Shown: positions 8,295-48,600, counted from the first letter of the stretch. The stretch is DNA of 64,000 nt from Candidatus Danuiimicrobium aquiferis (GCA_001804285.1 MHFR01000048.1:43622-107621), one strand, 5' to 3'. Translations and numbers: made by a program. The notes: generated from the sequence alone by a model not told the origin.

Positions 8295-8320
8295 AGTGGT
8301 TATTTAAAATTATTGGGTTT

Positions 8321-10216: not shown

Positions 10217-10262
10217 TGTCATATTCTCCTTATGAATGATGTTATGTAATTCTTGTTTTTTG

Positions 10263-10656: not shown

Positions 10657-10733
10657 ATTCGTATAGGATTTAGCTGCAGGCACAATCAATTTTATATAAA
10701 AGTGATCATGGTTTAAAAAAGGGTTCCCTTTTT

Positions 10734-26288: not shown

Positions 26289-26323
26289 CAATTGAAAAGA
26301 GACAAGGGAAAAGAGCTCTAGTA

Positions 26324-26345
26324 GGGAACAGGCATGCCTGTCCCC
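26324..26345. terminator. bidirectional terminator-like hairpin between convergent genes (GGGAACAGGCATGCCTGTCCCC; repeat family D)
   Basis: Perfect 11-bp palindrome stem between the 24060..26288(+) and 26345..27202(-) genes. Confidence 0.55.
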
Positions 26346-27202: not shown

Positions 27203-27245
27203 AGATTTTAGCACTTTGTTCAACAAATTCGTACCGACTTCCATT

Positions 27246-27320
27246 CCCCTCACCCTAACCCTCTCCCGCGGGGAGCGGGCAGGAGTGAGGGGGATCTGTT
27301 GATCACTTCAAAATCAGAAA
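27246..27320. repeat. half MITE (palindromic core + right TIR CACTTCAAAATCAG)
   Basis: CCCTCACCCTAACCCTCTCCCGCGGGGAGCGGGCAGGAGTGAGGGGGATCTGTTGATCACTTCAAAA. Confidence 0.6.
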
Positions 27321-27433
27321 TGATTACATTCATATTTCGACTGATAAAACAGAAACTTAACTTTTTAACCGCTTAGATCTCGCAAACTATTTAATTGCAA
27401 CAAGTTAGAGTAATTAAAAAGTTTAACTTAGCC

Positions 27434-27462
27434 TTGTATTCTTATTATCTGTCGGGTATAAT
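27434..27462 (+). promoter_or_regulatory. candidate sigma-70-like promoter for the giant gene (TTGTAT-N17-TATAAT)
   Basis: Seen in an AT-rich region ~190 nt upstream of ATG 27654. Only meaningful if the host uses canonical -35/-10 promoters. Confidence 0.3.
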
Positions 27463-27611
27463 TAAACATCCTACCGATAAGGAGTACAGAGTTCATTAAA
27501 TTATAGAGTTTTCGAGCCAAGGGGAAAACATTCCCGTTTCATATTTAAAGTTTTGAAAGTAGTTTAGCAAAAAATTTATCAGTTTTTTAGGAGGTAAATA
27601 ACCGCCGATCT

Positions 27612-27650
27612 ATGTTTATTTCTTTTGGAAACATGGCGGTTAAACGGTAA
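27612..27650 (+). other. 12-codon uORF (MFISFGNMAVKR) ending 3 nt before the giant-gene ATG
   Basis: ATG 27612 and TAA 27648-27650, same phase as the giant ORF. Its stop overlaps the only SD-like purine tract (TAAAGG) of the giant gene. Confidence 0.3.
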
Positions 27651-27653
27651 AGG

Positions 27654-30600
27654 ATGCATTTTGGGATTAAACAAAAAAACAAATCATTTAATCTAAGCGT
27701 AAAACGAGCCACTCTCTCTATTTTTTCATCCCGTTTTCTTCGTTCAATTGCCCTTGTTGTGTTGATTTGTTTTGTGACGACGAATATCACATGGGCAGAT
27801 GTGAGCGTTGGCGCATCGATCACCACCCTTCAAAATGAAATCCAATCGCTTGCCCTCAAGCCCTTTGCGATTCCCCGGGAAGCCGGACGGATCGAAGAAT
27901 TGTTTCTTCCTGACGGAATGTCCCCGGAAACACCGCTGATCGTCTATTTGCAGGATGCTCATACCAACTTGGGCGCGCAAGAGAATATCCAAAAAATTGT
28001 GCAGGAATTAGCGCCGAAACTCAAAATTGACACGGTCCTTGTCGAAGGCGGTACGGGCGAAATCGATTTGTCGGAATTGAAATCCTATCCGGATGAAAAA
28101 ATTAAAACCAACGTTACGCAGTTCTGGATGAAAGAAGCGGTTCTGAACGGAATCGAGCGCGCTGCGATATTAAGCAAAGCCAATTTCCGCCTCATTGGAA
28201 TTGAAGACAAGAATCTTTATGAAGAAGCCGGAAAGCACTTTGTAACGGCCAAGCAGGAATCGCAGGCATTTCTTGCCGAACTTGAGCCACGCTTGAAATT
28301 GATCAACGAAAAACGGAAAGCAAAATTCAATCAAGATTTGATGGTGTTCGATGATTTGACAAATATGTTCGAAAAGAAGCAGGAGCTCATGCCTCTTGTG
28401 AGCGTGATTGCCAATGAAGCCAGGAACCGCCATCTTGACCGCTGGAAATACGCGCAAGTTGAGAAGTTTATCAGTTTGATGCTGTTTGAAATTCGCGGTG
28501 GCAATCAGCAGCAACTTCTCAGAGCGAAAAAAGATTTAGACGCAAAACAATTTTTCAAAGAGCTTGAAGCTTTAAAACAAGAAGTCAAAGAATCGCTGTT
28601 TCAGAATGACGAAGAACGCGCGATTGACGCAGAGGCGCAGGGACTAAAGTTATTGCGCGATTTGGTGTCGCTCGAAGCCACGCCGGAGCAATATCAAAAT
28701 TTTCTGAAGGACCGCGAAAAGATTGAAAGATTGATTGAAAATAATTTTGGAATTCTGTCATCCCCGCATGCAGTAGGCGGGGATCCATGGATTCCCGCTT
28801 CCGCGGGAATGACAAAACCTCAAACGAATTCATCACTCGCCCTTGAATCCGCCATCGAATTTTACGAATCCGCAATTAAACGCGACGACATCTTATTTCA
28901 AAACCTGCAGGCGGCTCTATCAAAGCAATCTTCCAAACACATTTTTCTCGTCACCGGCGGATTTCATACGCCCGGCATTGTTGAAAAGTTGAAAAGCGCG
29001 AAGCTTTCGTACGTGCTCATTTCGCCGCAAGTGAGCGAAGAAGACAACGCCAGGCAATATTTAGAACGTGTCGCTGGCAAGCGCGCCGATTTGGAGGAAT
29101 TTAAATCAAAATACGGCCCTCACCCTAACCCTCTCCCTGAGGGAGAGGGCAGTCCAAATTTCTACAGGCAGTCCTCGCAGCGAAGCGGAGAGGGGAAGTT
29201 TAAGGGGACGGGTGAGGGGGAAACGTATGCCGTGCCCTCGGTCAGCCGGGCTGAAGTTGGAATCATCCGCGAATCCTTTGATTGGGCGGCAGAGCGATCT
29301 GGGGAGATCGACAATAGTCACTGGTCACCAGTCAATAGTGCCCCTTTTTCTACGAATGTCATCCCCGCAAAAGCGGGGATCCAGCGGGATTCCCGCCTCC
29401 GCGGGAATGACACAATATTCCGCTCCGAAGCGCGAAGTACGCAGAATCATGATCAGTACGATACCCCGGCCTATAGTCTTAATTCCGGTTTTGATTCAGA
29501 TGATACTGATGAAATTCAACGAATTTTGAGCGAGTTTCGCCGCATTTCCGGCATTTCTCGGAAAACGGTCCAACAATTTGCGAAGGAAGCTATTCAATCT
29601 GCAGGCAGCAAAGAGTTGCGGAGACTTCGCTTTGAATCAACGCCTCGCGAAAGATCAATATATTACTGGACTCTTTTGATTCTTGGCTGCATCACCGTCG
29701 GTTTAGGTGCCGCTTCAGCAGGTTGGGCGTGGTCCGCGGCCATCTTGCGGGATATGGGACAGAAGGATCATGTTTCATTTTGGACATCCGTTATTCCCAT
29801 GGCGATTGGGCTTGGGATTTTCATTGTCGGAGTCATTGTTTTAATTGCGCTTAACAGACCGTACCCGCTTAATGAAAAAAGTGTCTATGAACTCGCGTTG
29901 CGGTTTAAGTATCTTGATGGCGAAACATTTCGAAAACCATCCGATTCGGCAAACCTTCTCGCCCGTTCCGAAGTGCGTGGCGAAAGTGAAGCAAAAAAAC
30001 CGATTATTGATGTTCGCCGCCTTGAAGATCAGCACCATCGGCGATTTCAGGAACTCGTCGGGCTGTATCAAAAAATAAAACCCCAATCTGTAGCGGCTGA
30101 GATCAGGCTGTTTATTTTTGGCGCGATTTCTTTCATCAGTATGATAGTCGGTTTTTTTATGATGAGTAGTATCGAAAACCCCCGAGACCTTGTCACAATG
30201 ATAATGCCGTCTATCGCCATATCTCTTACGGCGCTTATGCCCACCATTTATTTTATGTGGAAAGCTAAAAAATTGGGGACACTTTTAAATAACATTCTGG
30301 GCAATTTCAGCGGCATGGAACTGACGAAAGAGGAACGCTCACAAAAACCGAAAAAATTAGAGCAGTTTTCTTTGAGATGGGGCGAGCGGTTTGATTTCGA
30401 GAGAAAACGGGGCAAACAATATCAGACGCCCAAATTGATTGAAGGCGGGCGGATGTTTGAAGAGGAAGGAGAATTTTTTTCATTGGATCAGAGGACGATC
30501 AATGATTTGGGTGTCGAATCGCTTTTGGAAAAACAGGATAGGACAAAGACAGGATTCGGACAGTCGCGGCTCGAATGGCTCATTAAACATCCGCTTCTAA

Positions 30601-33600
30601 CGCCGGGAAAAATCCGGGAACGGCAGGCGTCTATCGGTGAATTTATCCAAAATGAATCATTCCGGAAGATTATGGAAGAAAAATTTACACAATTGGGAGA
30701 AAAAATTCGAGACCGTGCCTTTTGGAGTTTTGACGTGCCGGATTTTCGCTACCGGCCGAATAAATGGATGGCGCTCGGGTTGACATTATGCAAATTTCTG
30801 CTGATTCCGGCGGGTATTTTATTGGCCGGCTATTCGTGGAAAATGCTTCCCGTTCCCTTTGTTTTGTTTTTAATGATTCGCAGCGCGTATCTGAATGAAA
30901 AAGTCATTCGAAGAGAATGGAAGGCGGTCGGAAAGTTTATCAATGAAATATTACCCGAACTTCGGCAAGCCGAATCGCCGTTACTTCAGAAAATTTACTC
31001 CGTGCTAAAGGATGCCGTCGATCCGCATGGCTCGGCCGGCATCGCTTCTTTTATCAACCGTCCCGGCATGTTGAATGGCGCGTGGGCGTATTTAAACAAA
31101 AGAAAAGAGTTACAGAGTGTCCTCGGCGCGATTGGCGAGCTTGAGAGCTTGTATTCCCAAGGGCAGGCGGCCGTTGACAATTTGGGATATCATGATTTTC
31201 CCGAAATATTGGATCGTGATACTTCCGTTTCTGGGCCAGAACAAGGCCGGCCGGTATTAAAGTTTGAAACGGAAAAATTGCATCATCCGGCCATTCCGTT
31301 TGAGAAATCCGTCGGAAATCCGGTCCGGTTCGCTTCGGATCATTCCTTTATGATTTTAACCGGCGCGAACATGGGCGGAAAATCGACCTTTCTCAAAACA
31401 TTGGCGCTTGCGATCATTCTCGCGCAAACGGGCGGGCCGATCCGCGGGTTCAACATGAAACTGACACCGGTCAAACTCATGACGCTTTTTGATGTCAGAG
31501 ATGACATTGCGGCAGGAAAGTCCAAATATGACGCACAGACAGACCGGCTCAAAGAAATGACTGATTTAGCGGCGTCAGATCCGAGAGTGATGTTATTTTT
31601 TGATGAAATGTTAAACGGAACCAACCCGGAAGATCATCTTGTGATCGAAGAAGGCACGATCCTCTACTTGGTGAAGCTCGGGATTTTCGGCATGTTAGCC
31701 ACGCATGATTTGGAAGTGACGGAACTCGAAACAGTCGAAAAGCAACCCGGCGTTTTCAATATGCATTTTGACGAAAAATTGGATGCCGACAGGAAGCCGC
31801 AAGCGGATTATGAGTTAAGCCAGGGACCCGTTGAAGGTTCAAACGCGATTTCCATTCTTGAAAGAAAAGGATATCCTCCGGAAATTATTGACGAAGCCAA
31901 ACGCCGCGCTCTGGTGAGACTGGAGAAAAAAGCAAAAGGGCAAGCACGGGCCGAAGTGCGCCACCTTGAAAATAGTGGCAAGGCGATTATTAATCGAGGC
32001 GCACGAGAGTCCTCGATACTTTCCAAGGGGCTTGTATCGAGGGCCGAAGTTCGTAACCTTGAGAATACAGAAGTCAGAAGTCAGAAGTCAGATATGTCAT
32101 TCCCGCAGGCTTCTGGCGGGAATCTGCGTTTGCTCGCCAGAGGCGAATTTGTCTTTGGCAGAGATTCCCGACAACAGATTTCGGGAATGACACCAGAATA
32201 TCGTTCCGAAGCCCGTGCGGATTCGGATTCCGACACGCCGGCTTATGTGTTGGATCCCGGTTTCGATCCAGAACAATATCCAGACGAAGTTCATACAATT
32301 CAACGAGCATTAACTAAAATTCGCCAAATCACAAACAAAAGCCAGGCAGAAGTTCAAACGGAAGCGAATAAACATATTCGCTTTAGCAATAATTATCCAT
32401 ACGCGCTATTGTGGCATAGCGAACCGGGATTATTTAACTTTGCCAGGGCAAAATGGAAATTTTTTCTGCTTGCCGGATTATGCCTCGCTTGTTTGCCATC
32501 TGCTGTGGCAATGTTTATATATTGGATTGCTCGACCTTTCAGTACCATACAGGAAGGAAGTGAATTTCATCACTCAAAATTCATTTTGTATTTTGGGCTT
32601 TTTCTTACTTTTGCGGGATATTATTTTTTACAAACATTTTTTGCTGCGCTGCCCGTGACGGAAGCGAATGTTTTCGCCATTTTTCGCGGAATCGATTTCA
32701 TCACGAAAGATGAATATCGGGATTTGACGTTAACTCTAAAGTCGTCGAACCCTTCTGCTGAAACTAGGGCTGAAGCGCGCGCGGAACCTGATTATGACAC
32801 GCCGGGATATAATTTAAGGCCGGGATTCGATGGCGACCAAATCAATACGCTTCAAGGCGCGTTAACCACAGTTCGGAAAGTAACGAAAAAGAGCAAGGAC
32901 GAAGTTCAGCGGGCCGCGAACAAATATCTCTGGCCATATCGCTTCCGTTTTTTCTCTTACTATGATGAAACGGGATTGTTCGACATCGCTCGTTTTAGAA
33001 ATCCGCCGGGAAAGATTCCCAATTATCTGCGTGCCTTTTTGAGTCCATCCGGACTTTTTTCCTTATTAGCCGCTTTGATTTTTGCGCTTGTTTTTGCCAT
33101 TCCTGTTGCTTTAGCGCAACGCTCTTTTATGAGAATGGTCCATGATGTCATGACAACGCTTACTTTCCCGCTCGGAATACAAATAGATGACGCGGCCGAA
33201 AGATTGCCTGCCTATACGCGCATGATTACCAATCCCTATTGGTGGGGAATTGTCTTTTTTATGGCCAATATATGGGCGGCAGCAACAGTGCTGAAATTGT
33301 TACGGGTCACGGAAGCGAACATTTATACCATTTTGTACCGTGTCGGATTCCTCACGAAAGACGAATATGAAGATTTGCTGAAAACTCTGGAATCGTCGCA
33401 ACCTCTTGGTCAAGAAACGCTTTCCGGGTCACGTTCTGCGGACAAACGGAAAATCGGGAGAAGGTCGCCCATTGAAGCGGCTTCCAATTATCTTTTGATG
33501 GGATTCGCCGAAGCGCGGCATCTTGCGCGCCTCCACCAACAAGCCATGCGCCTATCCGCTGCCGGGAGATATGTGCCCGCAAGAAACTTGCGTTTAAAAA

Positions 33601-36600
33601 CGATGATTTGGCGGGGAATTGTTATTAAGGGCGGAAAATGGATTGATATTTTTCAGTTGGTCAAAGAGTTCATGCGGGGATGGTTCGATATTTTTGATCT
33701 GCCCAAGAAGTTAATTAATCAACAAAGCATTCAGTTTCTTTCCTATGAATATTTAGGCGAAAGATATCATCGAGAAATGTTTCTTGATAGCGAAGAAGGA
33801 AATGCTCTCTACGGATTATTGGATGAAATGAAAAATGATCCGAAACGGTTTCCGGGAATTGATTGGTCGAAACATTCGGCCATTTATGGACATTGGGAAG
33901 TGTCGAGTTACCGGTATGAACGTTCCGAAGTTCGTAACCTTGCGCCGGAAAAGGGGACAGGCATATCCCTCAAAAGCGAACGATTGCCTGTCCCCTTTTC
34001 TGTTTTGACTTATGCTCCTGTGCTCTCGGCGGCGAAGTCCGCCGCCCGTTCCGAAACCCGCGCAGGAGCGGAAAAAGATCCGATCGGGCTGAGGAAAATA
34101 GAACAGATTGCCAGGGGATATAAAGATATCAGACGTTCGCGGCGAATGATTTATCCGAACATTATTCTTGATCGATGGCAATTGCCACCCGCTTTTGAAC
34201 CATACCAGGACGCCGTTCTCAACAGAAGAGCTCCCGAGTTTGAGGCGGGGATGGGCGTTGCTTTGATTGTGCCAGGTGAAGATATTAAAGCGGCGCTTCG
34301 AAAGAAGAAAGAACCAGAGGAACGGGTACAAGCGTTAATACGCCTCATCGAAACGATGGTAATTAAGGGGATCATGAAAGCGTGGCACGCGCGTGTTTTG
34401 AAATTCGGGTTAAAAGATGAAAAAAATCAATGGTCCGAAAAAGCGTTAAACAAGCCAGAAATCTTGCAAGTCGTGTTACAGGAATTGAGCGGTGAAAAAC
34501 TGGAAATTCTGAAACAATGCGTTGATATTTGGTTCAAGCGAATTCGAGAAGGACCGGAAGGGCGGTTGGGTAGCGGCTTGGTGTTGATTCAGAAAGACGC
34601 AGAACTTCTTTATGATTACCTCCGCAACGTTCATGCGCCTCATCAAAATTTGACGGGCTATCACAATATCGCAGGAAGCATTGTCGAATCTATTTTTCGG
34701 GGTGATATAGCGGCTAAAGTTCATTCTCTGGATGAATATGTTAAACAGTCCTGGGCGATGGAATTAACGGACGCGCTGCATACGTTAGAAACGCCAGCCA
34801 ATGCTTCGATTGCGGAAGCGGCCGTTGAACGAGTGACTCAAATTGCAGAACAATCGAAGAACAACCGGATCATCACGCTCGCCGGAAGTTTGGAAGATGC
34901 TTTAGCAGATGAAGAGCGGAAAAACAAATTGATTGCCAGAATCAAAACCATTTTGATAGATGAAAAATTAAAAGTGCTGGACTTTGCATTTTCCCGCCTG
35001 GAAGAAGCTGAAAAGCGCTTGCATGAAATGGAAGAATTCCAGCGTGAGCATCGGCACATGTTCACTATGCAAACCGACTATTATGCATTTGCGGATATTG
35101 CGGAAGGATATACGCGGCGCGTTGAAGAAATGTTCGGCCAAACGCCTAAGGATTATTCCGGACGCCGCATGAAGATGTTGATGAAAAATTTTGAAGAGAT
35201 GGAATTCCGGAACTTGGGAAGAAGCCAGCGTCAGGGTGGGGGACTACCTTTTACGACAGGTCTTCAGGTTGCAAAATTGTTGTGGGCGAGAGAGCGAAAG
35301 CCCGTTCGTGTATTGCGGGCTTTTAATCGCCTGATCAATAAGCAAGAATTGTTGGAAGCCGTAAAAGGTGTGAAAACCAGATCGAATGGTACCGCGAGGC
35401 CAGAAGAAGCAAAATCGCCGAAAGCGTATGTCGAGTTTCTGGGAGAGCACCGGATGAGTGCGATTGCTTTAGAGCTGGTGTATTACGGAATCGGAGAGGT
35501 GGCGCAGCAGCTCAGAGAAGATCTCGGGACCCACGCACAGGATGTCCTTGCTTATTTGAATAAAATGGAAATGCCTGCATTTCAGGGTGAGGGGGAATGG
35601 AAGGAAAAGTTGCATAAGCAAACAGCTGCCATTTTGAAGGCGTTGCGAGACATCGAGGGCATATTTGAAAAAGATGATGCAGAAAAAGATATATCTAAAA
35701 AACTATCGATTAACAAACGGGCTTCGATTGTATTCGAGCACGCGGCCAGGCTTCACCAAGAAATGGATCCAAGCTGGTTTCCGAATGATCGCACGATTGA
35801 TTTACTTCTACTTTACTGGACGAATACGTTTAAGGTGGGCGGAGCGGACCGTATTCACGAAGCGCTCGGCTCTATTTTGGAAAACGATTTATTCTATGAT
35901 TTCGAAGACGGAAAACGGAAACAAAAATCACCGGATGAAATTCTCAAGTTACTTGACACAAACCGCGCCCTTTCCCAATTGGCAACATTTGAGAGGAGGC
36001 AGCTTAAAAGCGTGCTATTTGAATTGGGCTTGATTAATCCCGAAGACGTGTATCCCGCCATGTTTAAATATGTGATGGAAAAAATCGGAACTGCAAAACC
36101 GCGCATGGTTGTTTTTTACGACCGGCATCTTCCGCTTGAAAACTCTTCCCCCATTATTGAAAGGATCGTCAAATCCGGGAAATATTCTTCCGATGATATT
36201 ATTTTTGTTCCATGGCCGGAATATACGACACCGCTTGGAGAGACGGTTGCTATTGCTGACGGGCTGATGGACTTGATGCGGCAAATGGCAAATCCGGAAC
36301 GGGGCAAACAGGTGCTTCCGGTTAAAAAATATTCGGTACGAGATCAACAATGGTTTGGAGAATTTGTGATCCGGGAAATTGCCGGAAAAATTTTCGAGCC
36401 GGAGGAACAAACAGCCCTTTTTCAGCAACAACAAAGGATCGGGACGAAATCATGGGGAGATATCGGGCCAATGCTCAAGAGTAGGCTGGGGAGTTTAGTC
36501 ATGAAGCCGTTATTGGCGGAAGCGGAAAAAAGAATCAAAGCAATTCATAGACCTGCGACTCAAGAAACGGGGGAAGGGGACGAGGAGACTCGAAGGTATG

Positions 36601-39600
36601 AGAGAGCTCTTTGGGATCGGTCTGGCGCTGTGACGAGGGAGACGAAACGGTTGATCGAAAAATTTTATGGTATGTTAAATGACGTGATGAACCGGATCGA
36701 TATCGGGAAACAGGCGGGCATTGAAGATGTTGAATTTCCGCCGAGCGAAGAACAATTCATTTATGCGCTGTTCCTCTATATGATGAAAAAAAGTTATCCG
36801 GACATGTTGTTTGTTTCTGTTCACCGTGATGTCATAATCAAAAAATCCGAAGATATTCAGTGGACGCTCGAAGAACTCCAGCAAGGTTTCCGATTGGTTA
36901 CGACCGACAAGGCAAAAGAAATTCATCAAGGACTCGAAATTCCGCAATTGTCGTGGAGAAAAAGATCACGGCAGGCGCATATTCATTTGGCGGTGGAGCA
37001 ACTTGTTTCTGCCAGGCGTGTCAATGCAGAAGTTCCTATTGTTTTTGTTGAGCTCAAACAGGATGCGCAAAAAATAGAATCAGTGCCGCAAGAAACATTG
37101 GCAAAGGCAATTTTGGGTTTATATGCTTTGAGCCTGTCGAATTTTGCTTCCTATTTTACTATTAGAGATGTTGTCCCTTCCCGAAGTGGTGTTTTGGGTG
37201 ACCCATATCGGATAGCGGATTATTTGTTAAGACCGGAGCCGGAAACAGAGGCGCAAATTGAACAAGGGGCAAAGGCTCTTGGGGAAAATTATTTCGATCG
37301 TGTTCTAACAAAAATGAAAGGGCAAGCCCGGGCCGAAGCGCGGAGTGATTTGAAGAGGCGGTCATTTGCCGAGGTTTTGTGGAATTATTTGTGGATGCCG
37401 AAGGAGGCCATTCAACTTGCAAAGTTGCATGCTGAAGCAAGAAAACTGGCACATGCGGGAAAATTTGATCAAGCCCGGGAACTTCGGATCAAGATATTTA
37501 TTTGGAGAGAAGTTGTTCTCGAAAAAGATCGTTGGTTAGGACCGGATCAATTTCGTGAAGCGATGTTTGGAGATTCTTCAATCGATTCTTTATTCATGAA
37601 TTTTGTTCAACATAAAATGCATCATGATGCGCCGACCCACTCAGATCAGATTGAAACGGTTGTCGATTTACTTTGGGAGGTTGAAAGCGATCACGTACAT
37701 TTTCCGGGATTCAGGGTGATTGTAGATGTCCGGAAAGGCCCGCAGGGGGTTGCGTGCCGTTATGATGAAAAGAAGCGATCAGAAGCGAGAAACGGAGAAG
37801 TCGCGAAGGAAATCCCTGAGGAGTTGGATTTTTACATTAAAGAGTTTTTATCGATTTTGCCGGAAAATAAACGTCCGAATATTAAAAAATTCAAAGCCGC
37901 AAATCAAGTGATCCGGACGAACTTGAACGATCCGGTACGTATTAAATATAAATTGCCGGTTACCATTGTTTTTAGACCCGAGTTTTTTATCCGCGGATTG
38001 CCGCCCGATTTACAACCCCGGGGGATGCCGTGGCAATTGGTATATACCAATCACGATTTGGCGGATGAGGCTTTTGAGTCTTTATTGGTTATCCACGGGA
38101 ATAAGGAAATTGAGGAGGTCAATCTTTCACAGGGCCCTGTGGATTATTTCATTTCTTCAAGCGAAAAGGCTTACCGGCATAAACGCCGGTCGATTTTGAG
38201 TTTTACACCGCTTGAAGGAAGAACCATGGATGACGTAAACCAGGGCACCAGTTATTTAGACGGTGCGTTTTCGGCGATTGTTGCAAAACCAATCAAAAGC
38301 AAAGGGGAATTAACAGAAAAACAACTTCAGAAAAAAACAGATGAACAGAAAAGAAAAATCATTGAGTTGTGGACGAAGTCGCTGGTAAATATTGGGATTT
38401 TGGGACAGGTATACATTGCGTCAACCGGAAACTTGATGCAGGCGGAAGAAATGGATTTGATTATCCAGTATGCATATGACATGGAATCTCTCGAGGAAGC
38501 AGAACAGAGACAGATGGCGCGTGGACAGCCATCCGGGGCAGTGGATTATCAGCCGGTATTTGGCCGAAGAGATTTACCTCCCGCGGTCGGAGTTTCCGAT
38601 GTAAATTTAGGAATTCCAAAGAAGAAATGGAAAATTCAAGGAATTGGCCCCGTGAATGCGATTCTTGCGCTGATCAAACATCCTGTGATTCAAAAAAAAT
38701 ATTTCGGGGGACAAGAACCGCCGCAAGTCAATGTCGGATTCTTTGGCTTTGGTCGTGTGGCCGCTCAAATGGCGAGTGTGGTGATATACGATTATGCGAA
38801 TATAACCCCCATTCAATTTAGCGGAATTATTGATGAAGCCCGGCAAATTTATTCGAAATGGGGAGAACTTCCCGTGCCCGTTCTTCAGGAATTGATTCGA
38901 CGGGTGAATCAGCGAGCAGATAGTCCGTTGCAAAAGTTGGCGCGCAGATTCCGGCGTTATGGTGTGCGAGAGCTTTCCAGCAATTCGGTACAACAAAAAG
39001 TATTGTCGGAAAATATTGATGTGCTTGTGCTTGCTTCGCCGCCGCAAACATTTGGAGAGAAAGAGGCCGAACGTTTTGAGGGGAAAATAGTTATCGAAGC
39101 CAACCAAAATGTGGCGACGAAAAAAGCCATTCAGATATTGAATCAACGAGGGATTAAATTTGTACCTTATTCGACGGTCAATATCGGAGAATCCTACGCT
39201 GCGCGCCATGAATTTGCGAATCCCTTTATGAAAGCCCCACGTTACGATAAAGAGTTTTATGTACTTAACGGAATCGTCGGGCATACATTCGCCAATATTT
39301 GGATGGGACTCGAATCGTTTGAGAAAAACCGTCTAAATCAGTGGAAAACGCTGATTCTATGGATTGTATCAGCTGCGCTGATTGGAACTGCCAGCGGATG
39401 GCTGGGAGGAATCCTTTTATCGATTCCCTTGATTGGAATTTCTGTCGGTTTTTCCCTTGGAACGATTGCTGGACTGATTGCGGCTTATATATTCGAGCCG
39501 CAAGCCGCGAAATCCATGGTTCAAACCGTGGGTGAACTCAATGAACGGATGAATCGTGAAATCGATGCGCTTGTTGTCGAAATGTATCACTTAACGCCGG

Positions 39601-42600
39601 AACTACATGATTTCAAACAAGACGAACAGAATAAAACCCAGTTGAGGGCTATTTGCAATAGACTTTTATCGAGGATTAAAGAGAAGAAATTAAGCGCGGA
39701 GCAAAAGAGGCAGTATTATCGCATTTTGGGGAAGATATACTTGCTAATGAGCCAAAAGGGAAGAAATGAGACTTATATGCCTTATGTTGTGGCATTAAAA
39801 ATTGCTGTGTTTCAGGAAGTTAATGCCGTGATTATCTCAAAAAGTTACGATTTAAAAAAATTGAAAGAACATCTTCGGTATCCCCAAAAATCAGATGCGA
39901 TTCAAAAACGAGTTGCGGCATTCGTAATCGGACAAGCGCGGCATGAGCCGAAGGATATTCCCGAAATCGTTGAGGCGTTGGGGGATCAGCTGATTAAAAG
40001 CGATGATTATCATGTCAGAGCAGAATGCGCGAAAGCTCTTGGATTAATCCGGCATTCAAAGGGGAAATCTTATTTGTTCATGTCGTTTTTTAGCACGAAG
40101 GAAACAGATTCAAGCGTGAAGGAATGGGTGGAATGGGCACTTGCCAGATATAATGTTAATTGGGAAGCGAATGCCGAGGCATATTATGAGAAAGAGCTTT
40201 TACCGATCCAGAGAAGAATTGAACAATTTGAAAGAATAACGGATTTGCGGAAAAGCACCCAACCCCGGCCGGCTTTTTGGGAACAAATCAAAGAAGGGCT
40301 GCAGTCTTTTCAGTCTTTATATAGAAAAGCCGGGCAGACTTATTTTGAATATGCACAAATGAAGCGGATGGAAGGGGATGATGAAACGGCTCTTAAACAT
40401 TATAAAGAAGCGATCAATTTGCTCGGCAAAGCGGGGTGGGAGGGCAATGCATTTCCATTTATTGTTCAACAGGAAATCGCTGAAATCTATTGGACGTTAA
40501 ATCAACCGGCGAAAATGCGTGAAGCACTTTTAAAGATGATTTTACCCGGCGCAGCATTTGAATTGGTCAAAGGCAAGGAGATAAAAGAGCAACGAAACAT
40601 TCAAGATTTCTTGATGCCGATTGAAATATACCAGCGATTGGCGTTTGAGCGGTTTTTCATCTGGAATGGATTTAAACCGGAAACGGCAGAAGTGATGGCG
40701 GCCGCGCTGAATCATTATATTGAGAGGAAATATAATGAACTCATACACGATTTTGGTTATGTCGGCAAAATGGACGAAGTCGATGCCAGGGAGCAACTGA
40801 TTCGAAAAGATATTGAAATTCTTGAAGAAATTAATAAAAAAATTATCCCAAAACTTTACATCGAAGATGAAAAAGCAGGAAAAATTCCATTTCTCAAATT
40901 AATGATTCTGGTGACAACCAATATGTATTATCAGCGCTTTCCCAAACTCATGCAATGGATTGTTCAAACTTTGAGCGAAGAAAAAATTCCACCGGAAATT
41001 CAAAAGCCGACCAATCCGGAAGCAAAATTCCTTCAGGATCTTTTTGTGGAAATTGGGCTTATCCAGGGTTCGAACGAGGGGGCGGCCGGCGGACGTAGCG
41101 AAATCCGTTCAAAAGGGGAAGAGTATCTTAATAGGCATGCGTTGATCAATGAATTTGGGACATTCAAAAGAGCGAATTTAGAAAAAGAATTTATGCCATT
41201 CCTGAATCAGCTGAAGTCGCAAGACTCCGTGCTGATTGAACGTGGATTCGAGAACATCAAACAACATTTAAATGCGGAGCTTAAACGGGCGAAGCAGCTT
41301 AGCAGACAGGATGAAGCGAAACGAGTGCGTTCGTTTGTGGCCGGAAGACTCGTTGCGATGATCCCGAGAATGAAGGAAAGATACATTCCGAATGTAGTCG
41401 AACTCTATGAAATACTTTTAGGGTCGATGACTTATTCCGTTTCCAGGTATCTTGGGTCGGGCGTCGCGCGTGACCCGGAAACGCAGATCCGTATCCGTCT
41501 TTTAAAGATTCTGCAGAAAGGCTCTGAAACCGGCACGCGGCCAAATATTGCAATCAGTATTCTTAAAAGTGAAACATTCGCAGGCAGTCGCGGTTTATTA
41601 AAGACTGAACCGGAAAAAGAATATTTGAAAATTGTTGATCAAACTATTTTAAAACGGATCGCGAAGGCATTCCGCGCGGGAGATGCGAGGCAACGTTTGT
41701 CGCTACTTCAGGACCTGCTCGAAGGAGTGCGCGCGTCGAAAGGTTTCGCAATCGAAGTTTCAAATCAGTCTTTATCCTCGCTTTTGGTCGGGGTTCTTGG
41801 CCGTTTCCGTTTTTCAGTTGAGGAATCAATCATCATGAATGAAATTAAAAAGACCGTGGAAAACCAGGCAGCTTCTCCGCTCATCCGGCAAGTTCGTAGG
41901 GCGATGGTTTTCGGGATGCTCAATCCGCCTGTCTATCAAAATCTTGACGATATATATTTTTATGATTCCGACCGGGCCATCTATCACGCGGCTATTCTTT
42001 TGGAGCATGGATTGATTCCGTTGATTCATTTGCCTGTTTTTGCATCGGGCATACAAGACAAAAATGATTTGCATAAAGAGCAGAAATATTCCGAACAAAT
42101 TTTTTCCGGGATTAAACGGCTAAGAAAAGAAAATCCAAAAGCGCTTTTGGCGGTGGGTGGAATTAAAAATTTTCAAGCCGCAATGAGAGCTGTCGAAAAC
42201 GGAGTGAATGTATTATTTGTTTCAAAATCACTGTCTTCGAGGCAGATTAAAAAATTAAAGTGGTATGCGGAAAAAATTCATCCGGAAAATCCGGATATTT
42301 TGGTCCTTTCAGGTGTTGAACGGGGTAAGAAAATGACACGGGGGCTAAATCGGCAAACAGGCGGCGGATTTCTGGCGCTCGATAAGCCTGAGGAAGCTGC
42401 GGTAAACGAAGATGAGATTCAGCGGCTGAAAAGGCTTCAAGAAAAACGCCCGCAAAATGTCTTCGGTTTTTATTGGTTGTTTTTAAACCGAGCGGTTGAA
42501 GAAGCTATGAAAACACCGGCCGATTTTATAGTGGTAGATGCGGAATTTTCTTTAGGGACTCAAGCCGAGATCACTGCGCAATGGCTCGAAAATTTGAAGA

Positions 42601-45600
42601 ATGAAACGATCCAACAGAGAATACGCCAGCGCCGACTGGATAAAAGAACGGTTTCTGGAAAACCGGAAGGACGGGCCGAGGTTCGTAACCTTGAAAGTAA
42701 TTCCAATCGGTTATCAACAGGGACGAACGAAAGTACTTTTAAACTTCCGAAGAGAAGTTTAAAACGTGCCGAAGCTCGGTCCCCGATAGCTGATTTGGCG
42801 AAAAAAGGTCAAGTAGCGAACATGTTTTCCGAGGAAGATCCGTCTGTGGTTTATTTGGCGGCGAAAAAAATGAAAGATGCGGCGGGAACCGTTCTTGCCC
42901 ACCGGATGAGTGCGATCGATAAAGACTTGGTTGGGCCAGTTTTTGGATTGGTGATCGAAACGGATGAGGGGCAATCCTTTCTGATTCAACGGTTGGCTGA
43001 AGGAACTTTTGACGAGAACATTCAAACCAGAGAATGGATTGCGGTTCATACGGTTCAGGAAACCCGCGCCGGACCGGAAACAGACGATCAAAGTTGGACG
43101 ATTATTTCAGAGCAGCCTCAGTATCTTACCACACCGGAAGCCATTCAAAATATCCGCTTAGGCGAACATGTTCAAATTGCTTATCAGCAAAAAACAGAAA
43201 AAAATCAGGCAGCAATTATTTTAACCGCACCCAATTCAACAGATCGCCGGAAACTAACCATTTATTCAGTTGAGATTCTTCCGGAAGGAATTCAAGCGGT
43301 AGACTCGACGGCTGATGACGCGGAGGCTATAGATCCTTATTTATATGATTTTCAAGATCAAGAACCGGGGAGCGCTGTTGTAGAAGAGAGAGCGCCGAAG
43401 CGAACGGTTCCTGATTTTTCTGATACCTTAGCGCCAAAAGCCAAAAAGGCGCCTCGTTCTTTTGCTTCGGCTAAGAAAAGAATTTTCCGCGCGTTGAAAC
43501 GAATTCCGTTTTTATTCTTTGTTTTTCTGATTGGCGGAAGCGTTGTCCTTTCTTATTTTTATATTCACAGCCTTGAAACAGAAACGATGCGAGGCGTTAC
43601 ATATCAGCATCTTCCTTTTGTTGCAAGCCAGATTGAATGGAAAGATTTAACTCGCGAAAGATATTTATCCAATAATCCGAATTCAACGGTAGATGATGTG
43701 TTGACGTCCGAACTTGCCGAGCCCATACGAATGCTTGCCCAATATAATCAGCAACGGTGGCTTCAGATTTACCGGATTGAAATTGCGAATGCAAAAGTTC
43801 CCGTATCTCAGCCGGCGCAAACCGGAAACAATTTTCGTGTCGGGGCAACTCCTGTTTCCAACGAAACAAAACCAGCCCTTCAAATCGGTGTTTTTCATGA
43901 CCGGACATTGGGGGAACCCAACCCGCCATTTCCGCAGGAAACGATTGTCTCCCTTGATCCGTTAGATCGTAAAGCACTGCATCAGTTTAAAGTGGCGGTG
44001 TATGGGAAGCCGGCCGCGCAATACAACTTGGATTTTGCTCGTCAGCAAAAAGATGCCATTACCTATTGGACATATTTTTATTTATTTGCCGGTGTCATTA
44101 TTTTTGCCGCGGGATTGGTCAGTGAATTTGTATTCCGCAAAAGCCGAATTATCAGGCGTGAAAATATTCGCGCGGACCGACGAGAGAGAAACGCACGCGA
44201 ATTCCGGCAAGCCGAAGGTCATTCGGGGCGAACAGAAGGCGGTGAACGAGGAAGGGCCGAAGTGCGTGCCGCGAAAAACGTTTTTAGATTAAAGGTAGTT
44301 GTGGTCCCGGGGCTTAGCCGGTACCGTGAAATTGAAGGCCATCAGGTTTTTACAAAGCCTTTGGCGGATATGACGGATGAGATGAGGCGGAAACTCAACG
44401 AATGGTTTAAGCCGTTTATGGGAGAAGGCTTTTATCAATTTGTGACAACAACCGGAATGCCGGATTTTATATTTTTGACGAAAGTACAAATTGTGTCGGG
44501 AAATGTGATCAAGCAAACGTTGGAAGATGAGTCCGGCGCCGAGCCGGCGGAGGCTGACCAAAGCTATCAACTCATCACGTTTATTCCGCTAACACCTTTT
44601 GCTGTCCAGCAAACCGGTTTATTTAAAACATTGGTTCGCGAATATATGAAACAAGCCAATATAAAAGAGCCTATTTATTTTTTACGGAGCCATGTTTATC
44701 GGACAACCACTCCTGAAGTGAATATAGAACAAAAGGAAGAATCAAGAGAAATTACCATTACGCGTTCAGGGCATTCAAGCCTTGTGATTGAAGAAATGGG
44801 GCGTGCCGAAGGTCGCAACCTTGCACCGGAAAAGGGAACAGGCATATTACTCAAAAGAGAACAATTGCCTGTCCCCTTTTCCGGTAAATCCGAGCTGCGC
44901 CACATTGAAAATAGTTCCGAGTTTTCAGTTCCGAGTTTCAGGTTAGGACGAATGGATCAACTCGAAACTCAATTCAGGGCCGAAGCCCGTAACGAAATTG
45001 CTGCGGAACTCAATCCGGGATTGGAAGCAGTTTTTATCCGGGCGCCGAAGAACGTGCTGGCAGGTATTGTAAAAGAGCTTTATCCAACCGATGATGCACG
45101 CCGGACCGGATTCCTGAATTTAATCCAAAATCCGGAAGCGGATCACGATCGCTGGCTCCCCGTAGGCCATCGATTACTTCTCGGCTGGTGGAGAGAAGCG
45201 CCTTATGCGGGGACGATGGTTTTGACATTTGATTTGCGAAAATTAAATGCCGCGCAAATTCGGGAATTCAAGCGTAAACGCGAAGGAAAGCACGCACTTG
45301 AAGGTGATTTCTGGCTTTACATTAATCGGGTTATCAGACGGATAACTGGCCAATCGATTGAGTTAGGCGGGGTTGAATCTGACGATAAGACGCTTTCTCC
45401 TGAAGAATTGCTTTTGCGATTGAAAATTCTTGAGCCAACCTGGACTTCCGGGAATATTGACGCACTGATTCACGTCGGAAATTTTTTCCGGGCAAAAGGA
45501 GATTTGGGACGTGCAGAGTTTTTTCTCAGAAAAGCAGCGGAGCTTCTTCCGGAAAACGAAGATTCGTTTTGGCGGGATCAACAGGCGAAAAAAATAATTA

Positions 45601-48600
45601 ATATTCTCACGGCTGCTTATGAAAATGTGGCAACAGAATATATTAAAATCGGGGATCGCGACAGTTTGCAAAAAGCCAGAACGCTTTTGGATTTTGTCTT
45701 CTATGGATTACTTAATCAATATCCTTTAAAGGATTCAGTTGCCCGCGTGGCCGGTCGTTATAATCAGCTCGTCGGTATTTTATATCACAGAGATTTAAGA
45801 GATGCAGGGGATGCGTTAAAGAAAGAAATCAGTTTGCTTAGGCAATATCGGGTGGCATCGCGGGTACCCGAACAGGCAAAATATGTGTTTGGAACAACCT
45901 TGAAATTAATTCGGGCATACTGGGGAGAATCGCCGTCGACATGGGGTCTTCGCACTTATCAAAATAGACACGAAGGAGCGATGCGTAGGCGTGACGATGC
46001 GATCGAATGGATGAAAATAGCGGAAACATTAACGGGAGATCCCGAATTTAGGGCTCATATGACGGATGCGCAAATCCGGGATTTTGAAAAAATGAAAACA
46101 TATTATGGCGGTTTGCAAGGGGAGTTCAGCTGGATCACAAATGGTGACTATGGCACTCCCGGACATATGATGCTGGAATTCCGGGGTGCAATGCATCATC
46201 AGGATATTCAAGCGATTCAGCGGCGTTCACCTTTAGTGTTAAAGCATATTGAGTATTGCAGGAATAATAGAACAAACAGGAGATTACAGCCCCAAGAGCG
46301 GCTGATCATGCGCGAAATTCGTTCGTTTGAGAAACGGCATGAGTGGGATGATGTTAACCGTTCAGAAGACGAAACGCGGAGGTCGGAAGCGCGCGAGGAA
46401 TCTGCCGAGAAACGCGAACTTCCCGAAGAAATACAAGCGGCGGTTGAATTAATTCGTCAGGCAATGGAATCATTCCAAGCCGGAACAAAAGAACGGGAGC
46501 GAATGAAATGGGCTTATCAGTATTTTACGGAATTATTTCAAAAAGGAAAACTCCGGATTGAAATTATCGAAGGCTATGAGACATTTGCAAGTAAAGGCAG
46601 TACGGATCATGACCCAATGGTGATCAAGGTCGGGGCGCAAAATCTCGCAAGCCCCGAAATTACGGCGCGGGCGCTTATTGTTGGATTTTATTTGCTGTAT
46701 TTAAAGCCGGAAAATAAAACGGAACCGGTCTTTAAAAAGACGGTAATTGGAAAAGCAAAGTGGTTAACGGAAAAGACGGATTTTCATTTTCCTAAAACGC
46801 CGGCAGAAAAAAGCGAAGAAGGGGCGTTGCGGGCAATTGGGCCTCAAACGGTAAAAGAGTTGGGTGAACTTAAAGATCATTTGGCGTCGATCCGGTCGGA
46901 GTCCGCAAAAGAAGCGGCGCGTGATGCAAGGAATGTTCAAGTTGATCCTGTGATGGTTCAGGCCTTGCAACAGTTTGCGAATGAGAGCAAAGGCAATCTT
47001 ACGGAGGCGTGGCGGCTTTATGCCGAAATTCTGAATGAACATCTTGAACACCGGCAATCGGAAAAACTGGTTCAGTTTTTGACGCAATTTTTAAATACGT
47101 TTTTAATTGTGGTTGCCAAAAGGAGTACATTCCAGGACCTATTCTTAGAAGTCCCCGAATCATTTGCTGAAACGCTCATTGATTATTTTAATTCTCCCGC
47201 GCCGGGGCAGGGAGGGATTGATGATTACCGTGCATTACTTCTGGAATCAATTCGGTCCATTAATCCGGACGCATTGGACCGTTTCATCGGTAACAAAGCG
47301 CTTTTGTTTGGGATTGCAAAGATGATTGAATCGGCCGAGGTCAGTGTGAAAATTGCCCGCGGAAAAATATCATCGTCCCGGATTTCGGCAACTGCGGCCG
47401 CAGGCCGGCAAACATTAAGAGAATTAGCGGCCCAAGCGGGCGGAAATTTACTCCCGTTACTCGAAGGGGCGAGAGTGATTACGGATACAGGTCGTTTGCT
47501 TCCAGGTCCGGAACCGAGTGGTGCCGGTGCTGATGGTGTGCTGGCTCCGGGGACTGTCCGGCCCGTAAAAGATCATCTTCCCGTAAACGCGGAATATAAG
47601 GGTTTTCAGGCAGCGCTTCGAAATGCGCTTAAAGCGGCTTTAAAGAAAAAACCAATTCCGTCGTTTGTTGAATTTGCAGAACGCGAAGTCCCAAGGCTCC
47701 TTGAAAATATGCATCACGCATTTGAGCAAAGAGAGAACAAGATTCGCGGAGGGCTGGACGAGCTTTCTGAGTGGCTGAAATTCTTGCATAATCAGGTTGC
47801 GGGTGGCGGCCCCCTGAATGGGGATTGGGCAACTTTTATTTCTAAAACCGAGGGAGCAGAATTTCAAGGGGCCGGAAAAGATTTGGGAAAAGAAAAATTA
47901 TCCGAACTTTATACCGTTATTTTCCTTGCGCAAACGATTTATGCCTATTTGCATGCCGGCCGGTATCAAACGACTGCTGCCGATGCTCGCAATGAAATTA
48001 ATAATCGTTTAAAAGCGCTGGCTGAGAGCGAAGGGCCTCCTGTTTTTAGCGCGGTTCAGCAGTGGTTTACGCGTTTTGAGCATGACGTTCAAACGGCCGA
48101 AACGCAAGCGGCAACACAGGCATCGATTATTCAAGCAAGACGGGACGATTATGAAGCGCGGACAACCAAAGTGCGAAGGCCGAAAGAAGGGGCAGGGGCG
48201 GCGGCTCACGTGGAATCAAACGCTATTCCGGTGGCGGAAGAACCGCAGGCCATTGCTCAGGAGCCGACGTTTAAAGGATTTCAGCAACGGTTGGTCCATG
48301 CGAAACTGAATGCGACGATATTAAATGCGGACCGCGAAAAAGCAATGGCGACTTTGGTTTTCTTGGTTGCGGGTGAGGAGAAAAAAGGGCTTGAAGCCAT
48401 GCCGGCATATCTGGCAAGGACAAAAGACAATTATGACAAGGGACGGAGAACTTTGTTGATGCAGCTTCACCCGGATCGGTTAAGAAGAAAACCTACGGCG
48501 GTAGAACAGAAAATATATCAATTTTTTGATCAATACAAAGATTTTCCGGGAACCGGACAAGGATTTAAAACGGGCGGGGATTTCGGGACGCAGTTGGTTG

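Follow-up and report, generated by a model that had tools for sequence, protein, structure and literature searches.

What is an ATPase of the MutS type doing inside a protein of 7,292 amino acids, and can it still be a mismatch repair enzyme? The question arises from a stretch of 64,000 nt (the 64-kb window, with positions counted from its first letter) of Omnitrophica bacterium RIFCSPLOWO2_12_FULL_44_17 (Ca. Danuiimicrobium aquiferis). A sequence-only reading had located segments of the MutS core (domain III) and ATPase (domain V) within a giant open reading frame, and every peptide that it quoted was found in its place; its structural claims were borne out. The MutS-like unit is a gene-sized cassette, lying in frame within the giant protein from aa 771 to aa 1436 (nt 29964-31961). 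The extent given originally (aa 940-1424) covered domains III to V but missed the N-terminal third (aa 771-930), which comprises an amphipathic helix and a putative first transmembrane (TM) hairpin. The parts of the cassette and its surroundings are as follows.

27654..49532, + strand: giant host ORF, open for 7,292 codons (OGW79760.1 / UniRef A0A1G1KV48)
29964..29978, + strand: upstream boundary motif RSEVR, aa 771-775, aligning with the start of stand-alone homologues
30003..30080, + strand: N-terminal helix of the cassette, aa 784-809, common to the ~600-aa stand-alone subfamily and the embedded clade (I-D...Q-H...F)
30108..30260, + strand: putative first TM hairpin, aa 819-840 and 846-869 (Kyte-Doolittle hydropathy 2.37 and 1.69)
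30444..30479, + strand: clade-specific motif GGRxFExEGEF, aa 931-942, directly N-terminal to domain III
30483..30707, + strand: N-terminal part of MutS core domain III, aa 944-1018, aligning with E. coli MutS ~263-340; contains LDQRTINDLGV (aa 944-954), TKTGFGQSRLEWLIKHPLL (aa 964-982) and IRERQASIGEF (aa 987-997)
30765..30893, + strand: putative central TM hairpin, aa 1038-1060 and 1064-1080 (peptides WMALGLTLCKFLLIPAGILLAGY / MLPVPFVLFLMIRSAYL), opposite the MutS lever tip and clamp
30894..31280, + strand: returning lever and C-terminal core helices, aa 1081-1209, containing LGAIGELESLYSQGQAAVDNLGY, the MutS helix that precedes domain V
31281..31910, + strand: MutS domain V ABC-type ATPase with C-terminal helix-turn-helix (HTH), aa 1210-1419
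31359-31388, + strand: Walker A, TGANMGGKST, aa 1236-1245
31500-31529, + strand: signature-like GKSKY, DDIAAGKSKY, aa 1283-1292
31593-31622, + strand: Walker B, LFFDEMLNGT, aa 1314-1323
31695-31709, + strand: TH histidine, LATHD, aa 1348-1352
31836-31910, + strand: HTH
31947..31961, + strand: downstream boundary motif RAEVR, aa 1432-1436; the cassette ends ~15 residues past the HTH
31962..32216, + strand: two short spacers of 31 and 54 aa, each ending in a further R[SA]E[AV]R; palindromic elements, elsewhere intergenic, recur in frame within the second spacer

Relationship to MutS

Pfam recognised MutS_V at aa 1233-1418 with an E-value of 6.6e-22 (78.8 bits, cutoff 30.2). The match to MutS_III (aa 955-1014, E 6.8e-8) was partial, covering profile positions 19-78 of 194, and at 33.5 bits it stayed 0.6 bit below the cutoff of 34.1. 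We assign domain III nevertheless, because other results agree on it: close relatives exceed the MutS_III cutoff with 42.9-60.2 bits; a profile-profile comparison (hhalign, family profile against E. coli MutS) gave a probability of 99.7% (E 2.2e-26) over MutS residues 263-798 including the HTH; and Foldseek with an AF2 model of the cassette (pLDDT 80.7, pTM 0.74) returned MutS, MSH2 and MSH3 as best matches (E ~5e-20, 520-630 aligned columns), all top matches being MutS or MSH proteins. Among solved structures, MutS2 (7vuf, 2.6e-17) was the best phmmer match, together with MutS (7ai6, 3.3e-17).

The ATPase motifs described from the sequence are intact, from Walker A and Walker B to the signature-like serine and the TH histidine, and all columns that are invariant in the family (G-N-GK of Walker A, Ser520, DE of Walker B, GTN and TH) are kept in the window copy. 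The HTH, a dimerisation element in MutS proteins, and the signature Ser are conserved as well. Core domain III, domain V, the HTH and the ABC-type motifs together place the cassette in the MutS clade of ATPases. Domains for mismatch or DNA binding had been thought missing, and indeed Pfam matched neither MutS_I, MutS_II and MutS_IV nor Smr in the whole ORF, where PF01624, PF05188 and PF05190 gave no match at E<=0.1. A module that lacks the mismatch-binding, connector and clamp domains is not expected to be a mismatch repair enzyme, so that a function outside repair, as suggested earlier, seems likely. In agreement with the single module reported before, tblastn found no second MutS-like module within the 64-kb window.

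Several more specific identities were considered and rejected. MutS1 is not compatible with the lack of domains I, II and IV or with NCBIfam scores of 105.6 bits against 480 (NF003810) and 99.4 against 641.7 (TIGR01070), nor is MutS2 with the lack of Smr and with 86.2 bits against a cutoff of 400 (TIGR01069). KamC, the lysine 5,6-aminomutase reactivase ATPase, matched in domain V only (NF052383, 77.4 bits against 300). Some homologues bear the JGI name of an ABC transporter with fused permease; there was no match to PF00005 or ABC_membrane, and the ATPase is of the MutS clade. PADLOC searches for an anti-phage defence ATPase gave matches at the level of the P-loop only (NsnB 6e-5, PtuA 0.008).

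The hydrophobic hairpins

The central hairpin lies approximately opposite residues 400-480 of E. coli MutS (lever tip and clamp), as had been proposed; the profile alignment is of low confidence in this part. In the AF2 model it is formed by cassette residues 267-290 and 296-334, the second helix running on as one long helix, and in the window copy it is bordered by basic residues. Hydropathy, conservation in the family and the helical hairpin of the AF2 model suggest that both hairpins are TM elements. The two outcomes that would have contradicted the sequence-only reading, a lack of significant HMM matches to MutS III/V and a hairpin predicted as buried core, did not occur. The ATPase would then face the cytoplasm, and the hairpin turns, i.e. 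the periplasmic loops, would comprise only 3-6 residues, leaving no evident output domain for mechanotransmission.

It had been supposed that a MutS module was wired into a host membrane protein. This view has to be given up, since the TM segments belong to the MutS-like family itself. In an alignment of the cassette with 57 homologues, nearly all of them stand-alone proteins of 530-680 aa that match it end-to-end, hydrophobic segments at columns ~345-390 were present in 58/58 sequences, and most members also had one or two N-terminal TM helices. Across the family the hairpin has a mean of 46 residues with 0.6 acidic residues, and its sequence is little conserved. Because it occurs in all aligned members, the central hairpin is an old family trait, ancestral to the family, and no invention of the giant protein. 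With TM hairpins native to the family, the arrangement is less novel than the earlier interpretation implied.

Stand-alone and embedded relatives

Members of the family are built alike. An N-terminal helix and a TM hairpin come first; domain III follows, split by a second TM hairpin that takes the place of lever tip and clamp, and the chain continues through the remaining core helices to domain V and a C-terminal HTH. The stand-alone members are solitary "MutS-related" genes of 530-730 aa from many phyla. No conserved gene neighbours of these were found, so that context offers no functional hint, and a literature search revealed no experimental work on any family member. An exhaustive search for relatives yielded 170 representatives at E<1e-30. 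The best were a 7,467-aa protein (P0131, 45% identity) and a complete stand-alone gene of 733 aa (P0132, 40%); further ones were proteins of 2,639, 1,655, 1,420, 1,901 and 1,584 aa.

At least three further long proteins contain the cassette, each time bracketed by a short recurrent motif; one of them (P0134) is confirmed as Omnitrophota, as it originates from a Ca. Omnitrophota MAG. The ATPase motifs are degraded in embedded P0134 (Walker A NEDGKS), P0133 (RATN and IHE) and P0173 (NKNGKS). CPBP and SPase II domains were also seen in long relatives. P0131 and the window protein can be aligned only in the N-terminal Tiki/TraB-like domain and in the cassette, the latter with 42% identity over 684 columns; compared with the rest of the giant protein, the cassette is strongly conserved.

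Boundary motifs and the topology of the giant protein

The motif R[SA]E[AV]R occurs in 17 copies (0.2 expected) and, within the window, is confined to the frame of the giant ORF. Its codons differ at every position, which places the conservation at the protein level. The copies at aa 771 and 1432 mark the points where stand-alone homologues start and stop. Cassettes elsewhere are flanked similarly, by RSEMR at 1469 and 2154 in P0133 and by RSEVR at 670 and 1346 in P0134, while P0131 has a different motif, xGFGx, at 1202 and 1891 (14 copies, 0.1 expected). The motifs divide the chain into gene-sized segments (149-1,632 aa) and spacers of 31-58 aa with a motif at either end, and the short spacers hold in-frame copies of palindromes that are otherwise intergenic.

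The fold of the conserved N-terminal domain of the giant protein is Tiki/TraB/EreA/ChaN-like, and proteases are among the members of this superfamily. The chain has an N-terminal signal-like segment, and the TM helices upstream of the cassette are strictly paired. If the signal-like N-terminus is used and the chain stays intact, the ATPase would be placed outside the cell, where it could not function. Either the chain is processed, then, or its topology is less simple.

Processing would mean that the giant ORF encodes a precursor and that cleavage at R[SA]E[AV]R releases the cassette, which would then act as a free 4-TM homodimer like the stand-alone proteins. The excess of the motif, its conservation as protein, its coincidence with the ends of stand-alone homologues and its counterparts in P0133, P0134 and P0131 all favour this idea, as does the division of the chain into gene-sized segments and doubly bounded spacers. 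The N-terminal domain is a candidate hydrolase, proteases (CPBP, SPase II) reside in the long relatives, and cleavage would remove the problem of topological parity. Cleavage of Omnitrophota giants into several products has been proposed before, without cleavage sites (West-Roberts et al. 2023 preprint). On the other hand the motif is a candidate site only and may instead serve as a preferred flexible linker, for docking or as a target of modification. Moreover, the N-terminal domain apparently leaves the cytoplasm, the compartment in which the motifs beside the ATPase are expected, and neither R[SA]E[AV]R nor xGFGx accompanies the embedded cassettes of P0136, P0139 and P0173. We therefore regard a cleaved precursor as a tentative possibility.

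A putative membrane-anchored ATP switch

The explanation that we prefer, with a probability of roughly 0.65, is that aa 771-1436 represent a complete and probably active membrane-anchored MutS paralogue fused into an Omnitrophota mosaic giant protein. The most likely mechanism would be a homodimeric ATP switch at the cytoplasmic face of the membrane rather than mismatch repair. Two copies of the cassette would pair head to head, using domain V and the HTH as all MutS proteins do, and the dimer would sit at the cytoplasmic side of the membrane. Binding and hydrolysis of ATP would then shift the lever helices. Because these continue straight into TM helices, the consequence would be a rearrangement of the membrane bundle (4 TM helices per protomer, 8 per dimer) and not the closing of a DNA clamp.

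How do other explanations compare? That the MutS-like gene is in reality separate from the giant ORF, through an error of assembly or annotation, is hardly credible: the in-frame copies of otherwise intergenic elements could be taken as a hint, but chance cannot give 7,292 stop-free codons, the identical protein comes from two MAG deposits and 7 contigs, and independent relatives are embedded likewise. Nor does the cassette have a start codon of its own near aa 771-830, and promoter- and terminator-like sites are not in excess within the giant ORF (18 against 29 expected and 28 against 26.5 expected, respectively). A decayed gene, engulfed by the giant ORF and serving as spacer or membrane anchor only, would have parallels in the degraded motifs of P0134, P0133 and P0173. 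For the window copy this is very improbable, since all family-invariant residues are intact and the cassette is the best-conserved segment between two giants that otherwise cannot be aligned. There is also little reason to believe that the central hairpin is a buried core element or a monotopic, re-entrant anchor. TM3 contains a Lys, TM4 is short (17 residues) with an Arg, and the AF2 confidence is just 74-77 here, but two hydrophobic stretches of ~20 residues joined by a turn of 3-6 residues, with almost no acidic residues, recur in 58/58 sequences and are accompanied by further N-terminal TM helices, and in the AF2 model the hairpin prolongs the lever outside the globular core. A more serious contender, though still an unlikely one, is a membrane-tethered clamp in which DNA would pass through the gap left by the paired levers and the membrane surface; it might, for instance, hold the nucleoid or incoming DNA in place. 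The MutS core, the lever geometry and the HTH are kept, and the basic residues beside the hairpin would suit such a role. Lin et al. supposed that MutS3/4 act in DNA metabolism, and archaeal MutS5, which has the ATPase domain and lacks mismatch specificity, binds DNA non-specifically. Against this, domains I and IV, from which the DNA contacts of MutS derive, are absent, other paralogues have left DNA (MutS2, and KamC as the MutS-like aminomutase reactivase of NCBIfam), and neither DNA-related neighbours nor fused DNA-binding domains were found in the ORF, the long relatives or the stand-alone loci.

Comparison with known systems

The closest counterparts of the cassette are the stand-alone MutS-related proteins, such as those of Larkinella terrae (P0109) and Clostridium sp. 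(P0042) and P0132 on L004, which have an identical architecture end-to-end at 20-40% identity and share the invariant residues. They are also named 'MutS family DNA mismatch repair protein'. While each of these is a gene by itself, with a start and a stop codon, the cassette has neither and is set between RSEVR and RAEVR. Canonical MutS/MSH proteins (MutS1) have the core, ATPase, HTH and ABC-type motifs in common with it but possess domains I, II and IV, all of which the cassette lacks.

MutS2 (Smr endonuclease, RqcU), which senses collided ribosomes, likewise lacks domains I and II and is a precedent for a MutS ATPase outside mismatch repair; it still has the clamp and carries coiled-coil, KOW and Smr domains in addition, the last of which is missing from the cassette. 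MacB, FtsEX and LolCDE couple a dimeric ABC-type ATPase in the cytoplasm to 4 TM helices in each protomer. This likeness is a functional analogy only; their ATPases are of an unrelated clade and the cassette has no ABC_tran match, LSGGQ or external effector domain. MutS2 has been treated in a review on ribosome-coupled mRNA decay.

By domain content only, the membrane-anchored family fits MutS3 of Lin, Nei & Ma (2007, PMC2190696), a group with MutSac (domain V) close to the C-terminus, in which MutSd (core) is optional and MutS-I, MutS-II and Smr are absent; it is scattered over distant phyla and its function was given as unknown. The TM segments that characterise the present family are not mentioned in that paper. 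The mosaic giants of Omnitrophota (West-Roberts et al. 2023 preprint; 2026 complete-genome preprint) are of the same phylum and are similarly long, rich in TM helices and composed of unrelated gene-like modules. At 7.3 kaa the window protein falls under the size cut-offs of those studies (10 kaa and 30 kaa), and neither preprint mentions MutS domains or a recurrent boundary motif.

The membrane-anchored MutS-like family is widespread but uncharacterised, and here a whole copy of it resides inside a 7,292-aa protein. Since the cassette is one of only two modules common to two otherwise unrelated proteins of ~7,300 aa, its role probably has to do with the giant protein or with the membrane setting of that protein.

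Identity of the MutS-like cassette

The giant ORF at 27654..49532 (+) encodes a protein of 7,292 aa which carries, at aa 771-1436 (nt 29964-31961), a MutS-like unit here called the cassette. The sequence-only reading had described it as MutS core domain III and ATPase domain V combined with a transmembrane (TM) hairpin. This finding is real and its structural interpretation is right; all peptides quoted for it were found at their positions. Pfam MutS_V matched aa 1233-1418 (E 6.6e-22; 78.8 bits vs. a cutoff of 30.2). Pfam MutS_III covered the core only partially (aa 955-1014; 33.5 bits vs. a cutoff of 34.1), and the family profile spans it: in profile-profile comparison it aligned with residues 263-798 of E. 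coli MutS, from the first core residue to the end of the HTH, with a probability of 99.7% (E 2.2e-26). The DNA-binding domains are missing, as had been proposed, and Pfam gave no match to MutS_I, II or IV (nor to Smr) anywhere in the giant ORF. The claim that the module is single also held, no second MutS-like module being found in the 64-kb window.

PDB sequences of MutS2 and MutS matched the cassette at ~3e-17, and the NCBIfam models for MutS1, MutS2 and KamC matched the ATPase part only, far under their cutoffs. An AF2 model based on a 58-sequence alignment reached a pLDDT of 80.7 and a pTM of 0.74. In this model the hairpin consists of two helices (cassette residues 267-290 and 296-334), the second of them running on into a long helix. 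Foldseek searches against the PDB placed MutS, MSH2 and MSH3 at the top, with 520-630 aligned columns. The profile alignment, which is of low confidence in this stretch, places the hairpin opposite residues ~400-480 of E. coli MutS (lever tip and clamp); this position is consistent with the earlier suggestion that it replaces the DNA clamp. What has to be revised is where this replacement was made, since it was not created in the giant protein.

An old family of probably membrane-anchored MutS relatives

A word-indexed search revealed more than 250 clusters of stand-alone proteins of 360-780 aa, covering 87-95% of the query and named MutS-related where annotated at all. In an alignment of 58 sequences, aa 771-1436 of the window protein were collinear with the stand-alone proteins from the first to the last residue, and the invariant columns included the Walker A G-N-GK, Ser520, the Walker B DE, GTN and TH. 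Hydrophobic segments were present at columns ~345-390 in all 58 sequences (mean hairpin length 46 residues, with 0.6 acidic residues), and most sequences had one or two additional N-terminal TM helices. As these segments recur at identical columns in every aligned member, the hairpin is a trait of an old and widespread family. The cassette is best regarded as a member, here in fused form, of this existing, uncharacterised family of probably membrane-anchored MutS paralogues.

MutS is the textbook mismatch sensor, and its paralogue MutS2 senses collided ribosomes. In the branch described here, the position of the MutS DNA clamp is taken by the putative membrane hairpin. MutS2 is discussed in the literature in ribosome-associated roles. 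The MutS3 subfamily of Lin et al. (2007; PMC2190696) comprises proteins with domain V, with or without the core, that lack domains I, II and Smr, occur in scattered phyla and are of unknown function. Judged by domain content, the cassette family fits MutS3; it also has predicted TM segments, which that paper does not mention. Our literature searches for TM-bearing MutS proteins gave nothing relevant, and we found no published account of membrane segments or function for the hairpin branch. Four stand-alone homologues on long contigs were compared for their gene neighbourhoods, which had nothing in common and thus provide no operon clue. For the cassette PADLOC returned nothing beyond P-loop-level noise and hence no link to a known defence system.

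Embedded copies in other long proteins

Searched exhaustively with phmmer, 1.84 billion representatives yielded 16,874 matches, 170 of them at E<1e-30. A scan of genome contigs with the single cassette as query found nothing, and an alignment of the clade was required. Several of the matched proteins carry the cassette within a much longer chain.

Proteins best matched by the cassette
P0131: 7,467 aa; 45% identity; module at 1223-1888
P0132: 733 aa; 40% identity; complete solitary gene on contig L004
P0133: 2,639 aa; module at 1469-2148; co-fused protease domain at aa 399-503
P0134: 1,655 aa; module at 684-1338
P0136, P0139 and P0173: 1,420-1,901 aa; embedded cassette; co-fused protease domains in P0136 at aa 299-400 and 723-848

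The window copy clustered with P0131, P0132, P0133 and P0134 in a rough NJ tree. Embedding of the cassette in long proteins is recurrent, because P0136, P0139 and P0173 fall elsewhere in this tree. The ATPase motifs are canonical in the window copy and degraded in some relatives. P0133 and P0136 also contain a CPBP (Rce1-like) membrane protease fused to the cassette, and P0136 a signal peptidase II; the CPBP domain of P0133 lies within a 273-residue segment between two RSELR motifs.

Long ORFs occur in tandem on two of the contigs. The P0131 gene, on a 370-kb contig (L003; region 25374-28404), is followed by a gene for 5,382 aa whose start it overlaps. The P0134 gene sits in a Ca. Omnitrophota MAG (nzgw332, contig L009) and adjoins a 2,657-aa ORF; there the latter (6-7979), which also bears RSE[VL]R motifs, overlaps the MutS-bearing ORF of 1,661 aa (7976-12961) by 4 nt.

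The 170 cluster representatives at E<1e-30 also included a non-TM family of ~900-aa proteins. Its members, many of them Bacteroidota matches from the genome scan (Sphingobacterium, Pedobacter, Chitinophaga and Mucilaginibacter; L015, L016, L023, L024, L033, L039 and L041), represent a different family and were left out of the family description. They have no central hairpin and essentially no TM-like segments (at most one, isolated), with Walker A near residue 270-290. In the representative search the 2-4 matched stretches fell into two regions (~240-440 and ~670-875), suggestive of tandem copies of domain V. Some genomes contain several copies of this family.

When the window protein was compared with P0131 by BLAST only two segments aligned, and ~5,800 residues were unrelated. 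One segment is the cassette (aa 783-1429 vs. 1214-1888, 42% identity), the other the N-terminal domain (aa 28-508 vs. 11-475, 27% identity). The latter comes after a signal-peptide-like segment, has conserved QDAH and TGGFH motifs and gave an AF2 model with a pLDDT of 76.9. A stand-alone homologue of it matched Pfam Cofac_haem_bdg (Tiki/ChaN superfamily) at 8e-5, under the cutoff. Since the word-indexed search gave only four relatives of this domain, its association with the MutS-like cassette rests on two giant proteins only.

Structure of the giant ORF and its boundary motifs

Omnitrophica bacterium RIFCSPLOWO2_12_FULL_44_17 (Ca. Danuiimicrobium aquiferis) is the source of the window. The giant protein is identical to OGW79760.1 and OGW96844.1 and occurs on 7 contigs. 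Ordinary chromosomal genes flank it (aminotransferase, HAD hydrolase, menaquinone synthesis, transketolase and a PAS-GGDEF-EAL regulator). Upstream on the same strand, beyond an oppositely oriented HAD hydrolase gene (302 aa), lies a gene for a 742-aa protein with a type I dockerin, a domain type highlighted in the 'Dockerin-type' giant proteins of Omnitrophota.

Features of the giant ORF and its surroundings
24060-26288, +: 742-aa FG-GAP/Ig-like protein with C-terminal type I dockerin
29421-29963, 32202-32765 and 32766-~33350, + (aa 590-770, 1517-1704 and 1705-~1900): three paralogous small cassettes with two TM helices each
38742-39230, 39888-40145 and other parts of 37776-46379, +: further Pfam modules (dehydrogenase-like, HEAT, TPR)
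29421, 29964, 31947, 32040, 32202, 32766, 33921, 34047, 37329, 37776, 42672, 42765, 44253, 44802, 44976, 46380 and 48858, +: starts of R[SA]E[AV]R in the giant-ORF frame
28756-28817, 29116-29221, 29386-29415, 32095-32193, 33921-34000 and 44802-44881: palindromic elements read in frame within the giant ORF
7308, 10584, 18628, 19041-19109, 19831, 27246, 50668 and 51329-51569: other, intergenic copies of the palindromic elements

Seventeen copies of the pentapeptide R[SA]E[AV]R lie in the giant ORF, where 0.2 would be expected; their codons differ at each position, and no other frame of the 64-kb window contains the motif. Two of them, at aa 771 and 1432, enclose the cassette at the very points at which the stand-alone proteins start and stop. 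Equivalent borders are marked by RSE[VLM]R in relatives (RSEMR at 1469 and 2154 of P0133, RSEVR at 670 and 1346 of P0134) and by xGFGx in P0131 (at 1202 and 1891; 14 copies vs. 0.1 expected, again with varied codons). Were the window protein cut at the motifs, five short spacers (31-58 aa) with a motif at both ends would result besides gene-sized pieces (149-1,632 aa). R[SA]E[AV]R is a candidate processing or boundary site; literature searches, including one for RSEVR, found no description of such a motif in giant proteins.

Palindromic REP-like elements, otherwise intergenic in the window, also form part of the giant ORF, where they keep the reading frame and encode peptides such as HPNPLPEGEG, IPAKAGIQ..RLRGND and NLAPEKGTGISLKSERLPVPFS. 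Copies lie in two of the motif-bounded spacers and others in the first segment; one copy of an internal repeat of 80 nt is present in a further spacer. BLAST of the giant protein against itself (E<=1e-3) reported no internal repeats and missed the three small cassettes, which were detectable only by direct alignment. Each of these opens with D-(Y)-DTP(A/G)Y-L-x-GFD directly behind an RSEAR or RAEAR motif; the MutS-like cassette lies between the first and the second, and one of the three showed a weak Pfam match to CyanoTRADDas_TM (E 0.0017). HEAT and TPR repeats and a Glu/Leu/Phe/Val dehydrogenase-like NAD-binding region (E 6e-5, at the Pfam cutoff) were found among the other modules, and several long stretches, e.g. 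aa 2132-3225, had no Pfam match.

Possible function of the cassette

Whereas the cassette's identity, completeness, conservation and recurrence are established, its mechanism is inferred. Mismatch repair by the cassette is very unlikely because domains I, II and IV are missing. Like all MutS proteins the cassette probably dimerises head-to-head via domain V and the HTH, and both soluble parts would face the cytoplasm, as needed for access to ATP. The levers would lead into the TM helices, and therefore ATP-driven lever motion would rearrange an 8-TM bundle rather than a DNA clamp.

The giant ORF might be thought an operon-like array of genes, but promoter- and terminator-like sites are not in excess inside it and this explanation was dropped; the cassette also lacks a start codon of its own. 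Alternatively, the giant chain may be a polyprotein processed at the boundary motifs. With a signal-like N-terminus and only paired TM segments upstream (27654-31961), the ATPase of an uncut chain would come to lie outside the cell. Cutting at the motifs would remove this problem, which is an argument for a polyprotein and not a proof of it. The giant-gene literature has proposed proteolytic processing, with the cleavage points stated as unknown; MutS is not mentioned in the papers on Omnitrophota giant genes.

A bolder extension of the polyprotein explanation, to which we give a probability of roughly one in eight, is that the MutS-like ATPase and the exported Tiki/TraB-like N-terminal domain are the conserved engine, and not cargo, of a bacterial polyprotein system. 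Giant ORFs of Omnitrophota would in that case be made up of cassettes the size of genes, with pentapeptides that differ between lineages (RSEVR in one, xGFGx in another) as delimiters, and the hairpin-anchored ATPase dimer might act on the giant polypeptide itself, e.g. in membrane insertion, cassette sorting or the presentation of cleavage sites. If so, the MutS clamp would have been repurposed from the handling of DNA to that of protein.

Three aspects are new: the context in which the cassette is fused, its selective conservation in giant proteins and the motifs that mark the boundaries. That the cassette is selectively conserved in Omnitrophota giants offers a handle on the role of membrane-anchored MutS paralogues and on a possible processing of the giant ORFs into separate products. 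The recurrent motifs are candidates for the cleavage sites which the giant-gene literature states to be missing.
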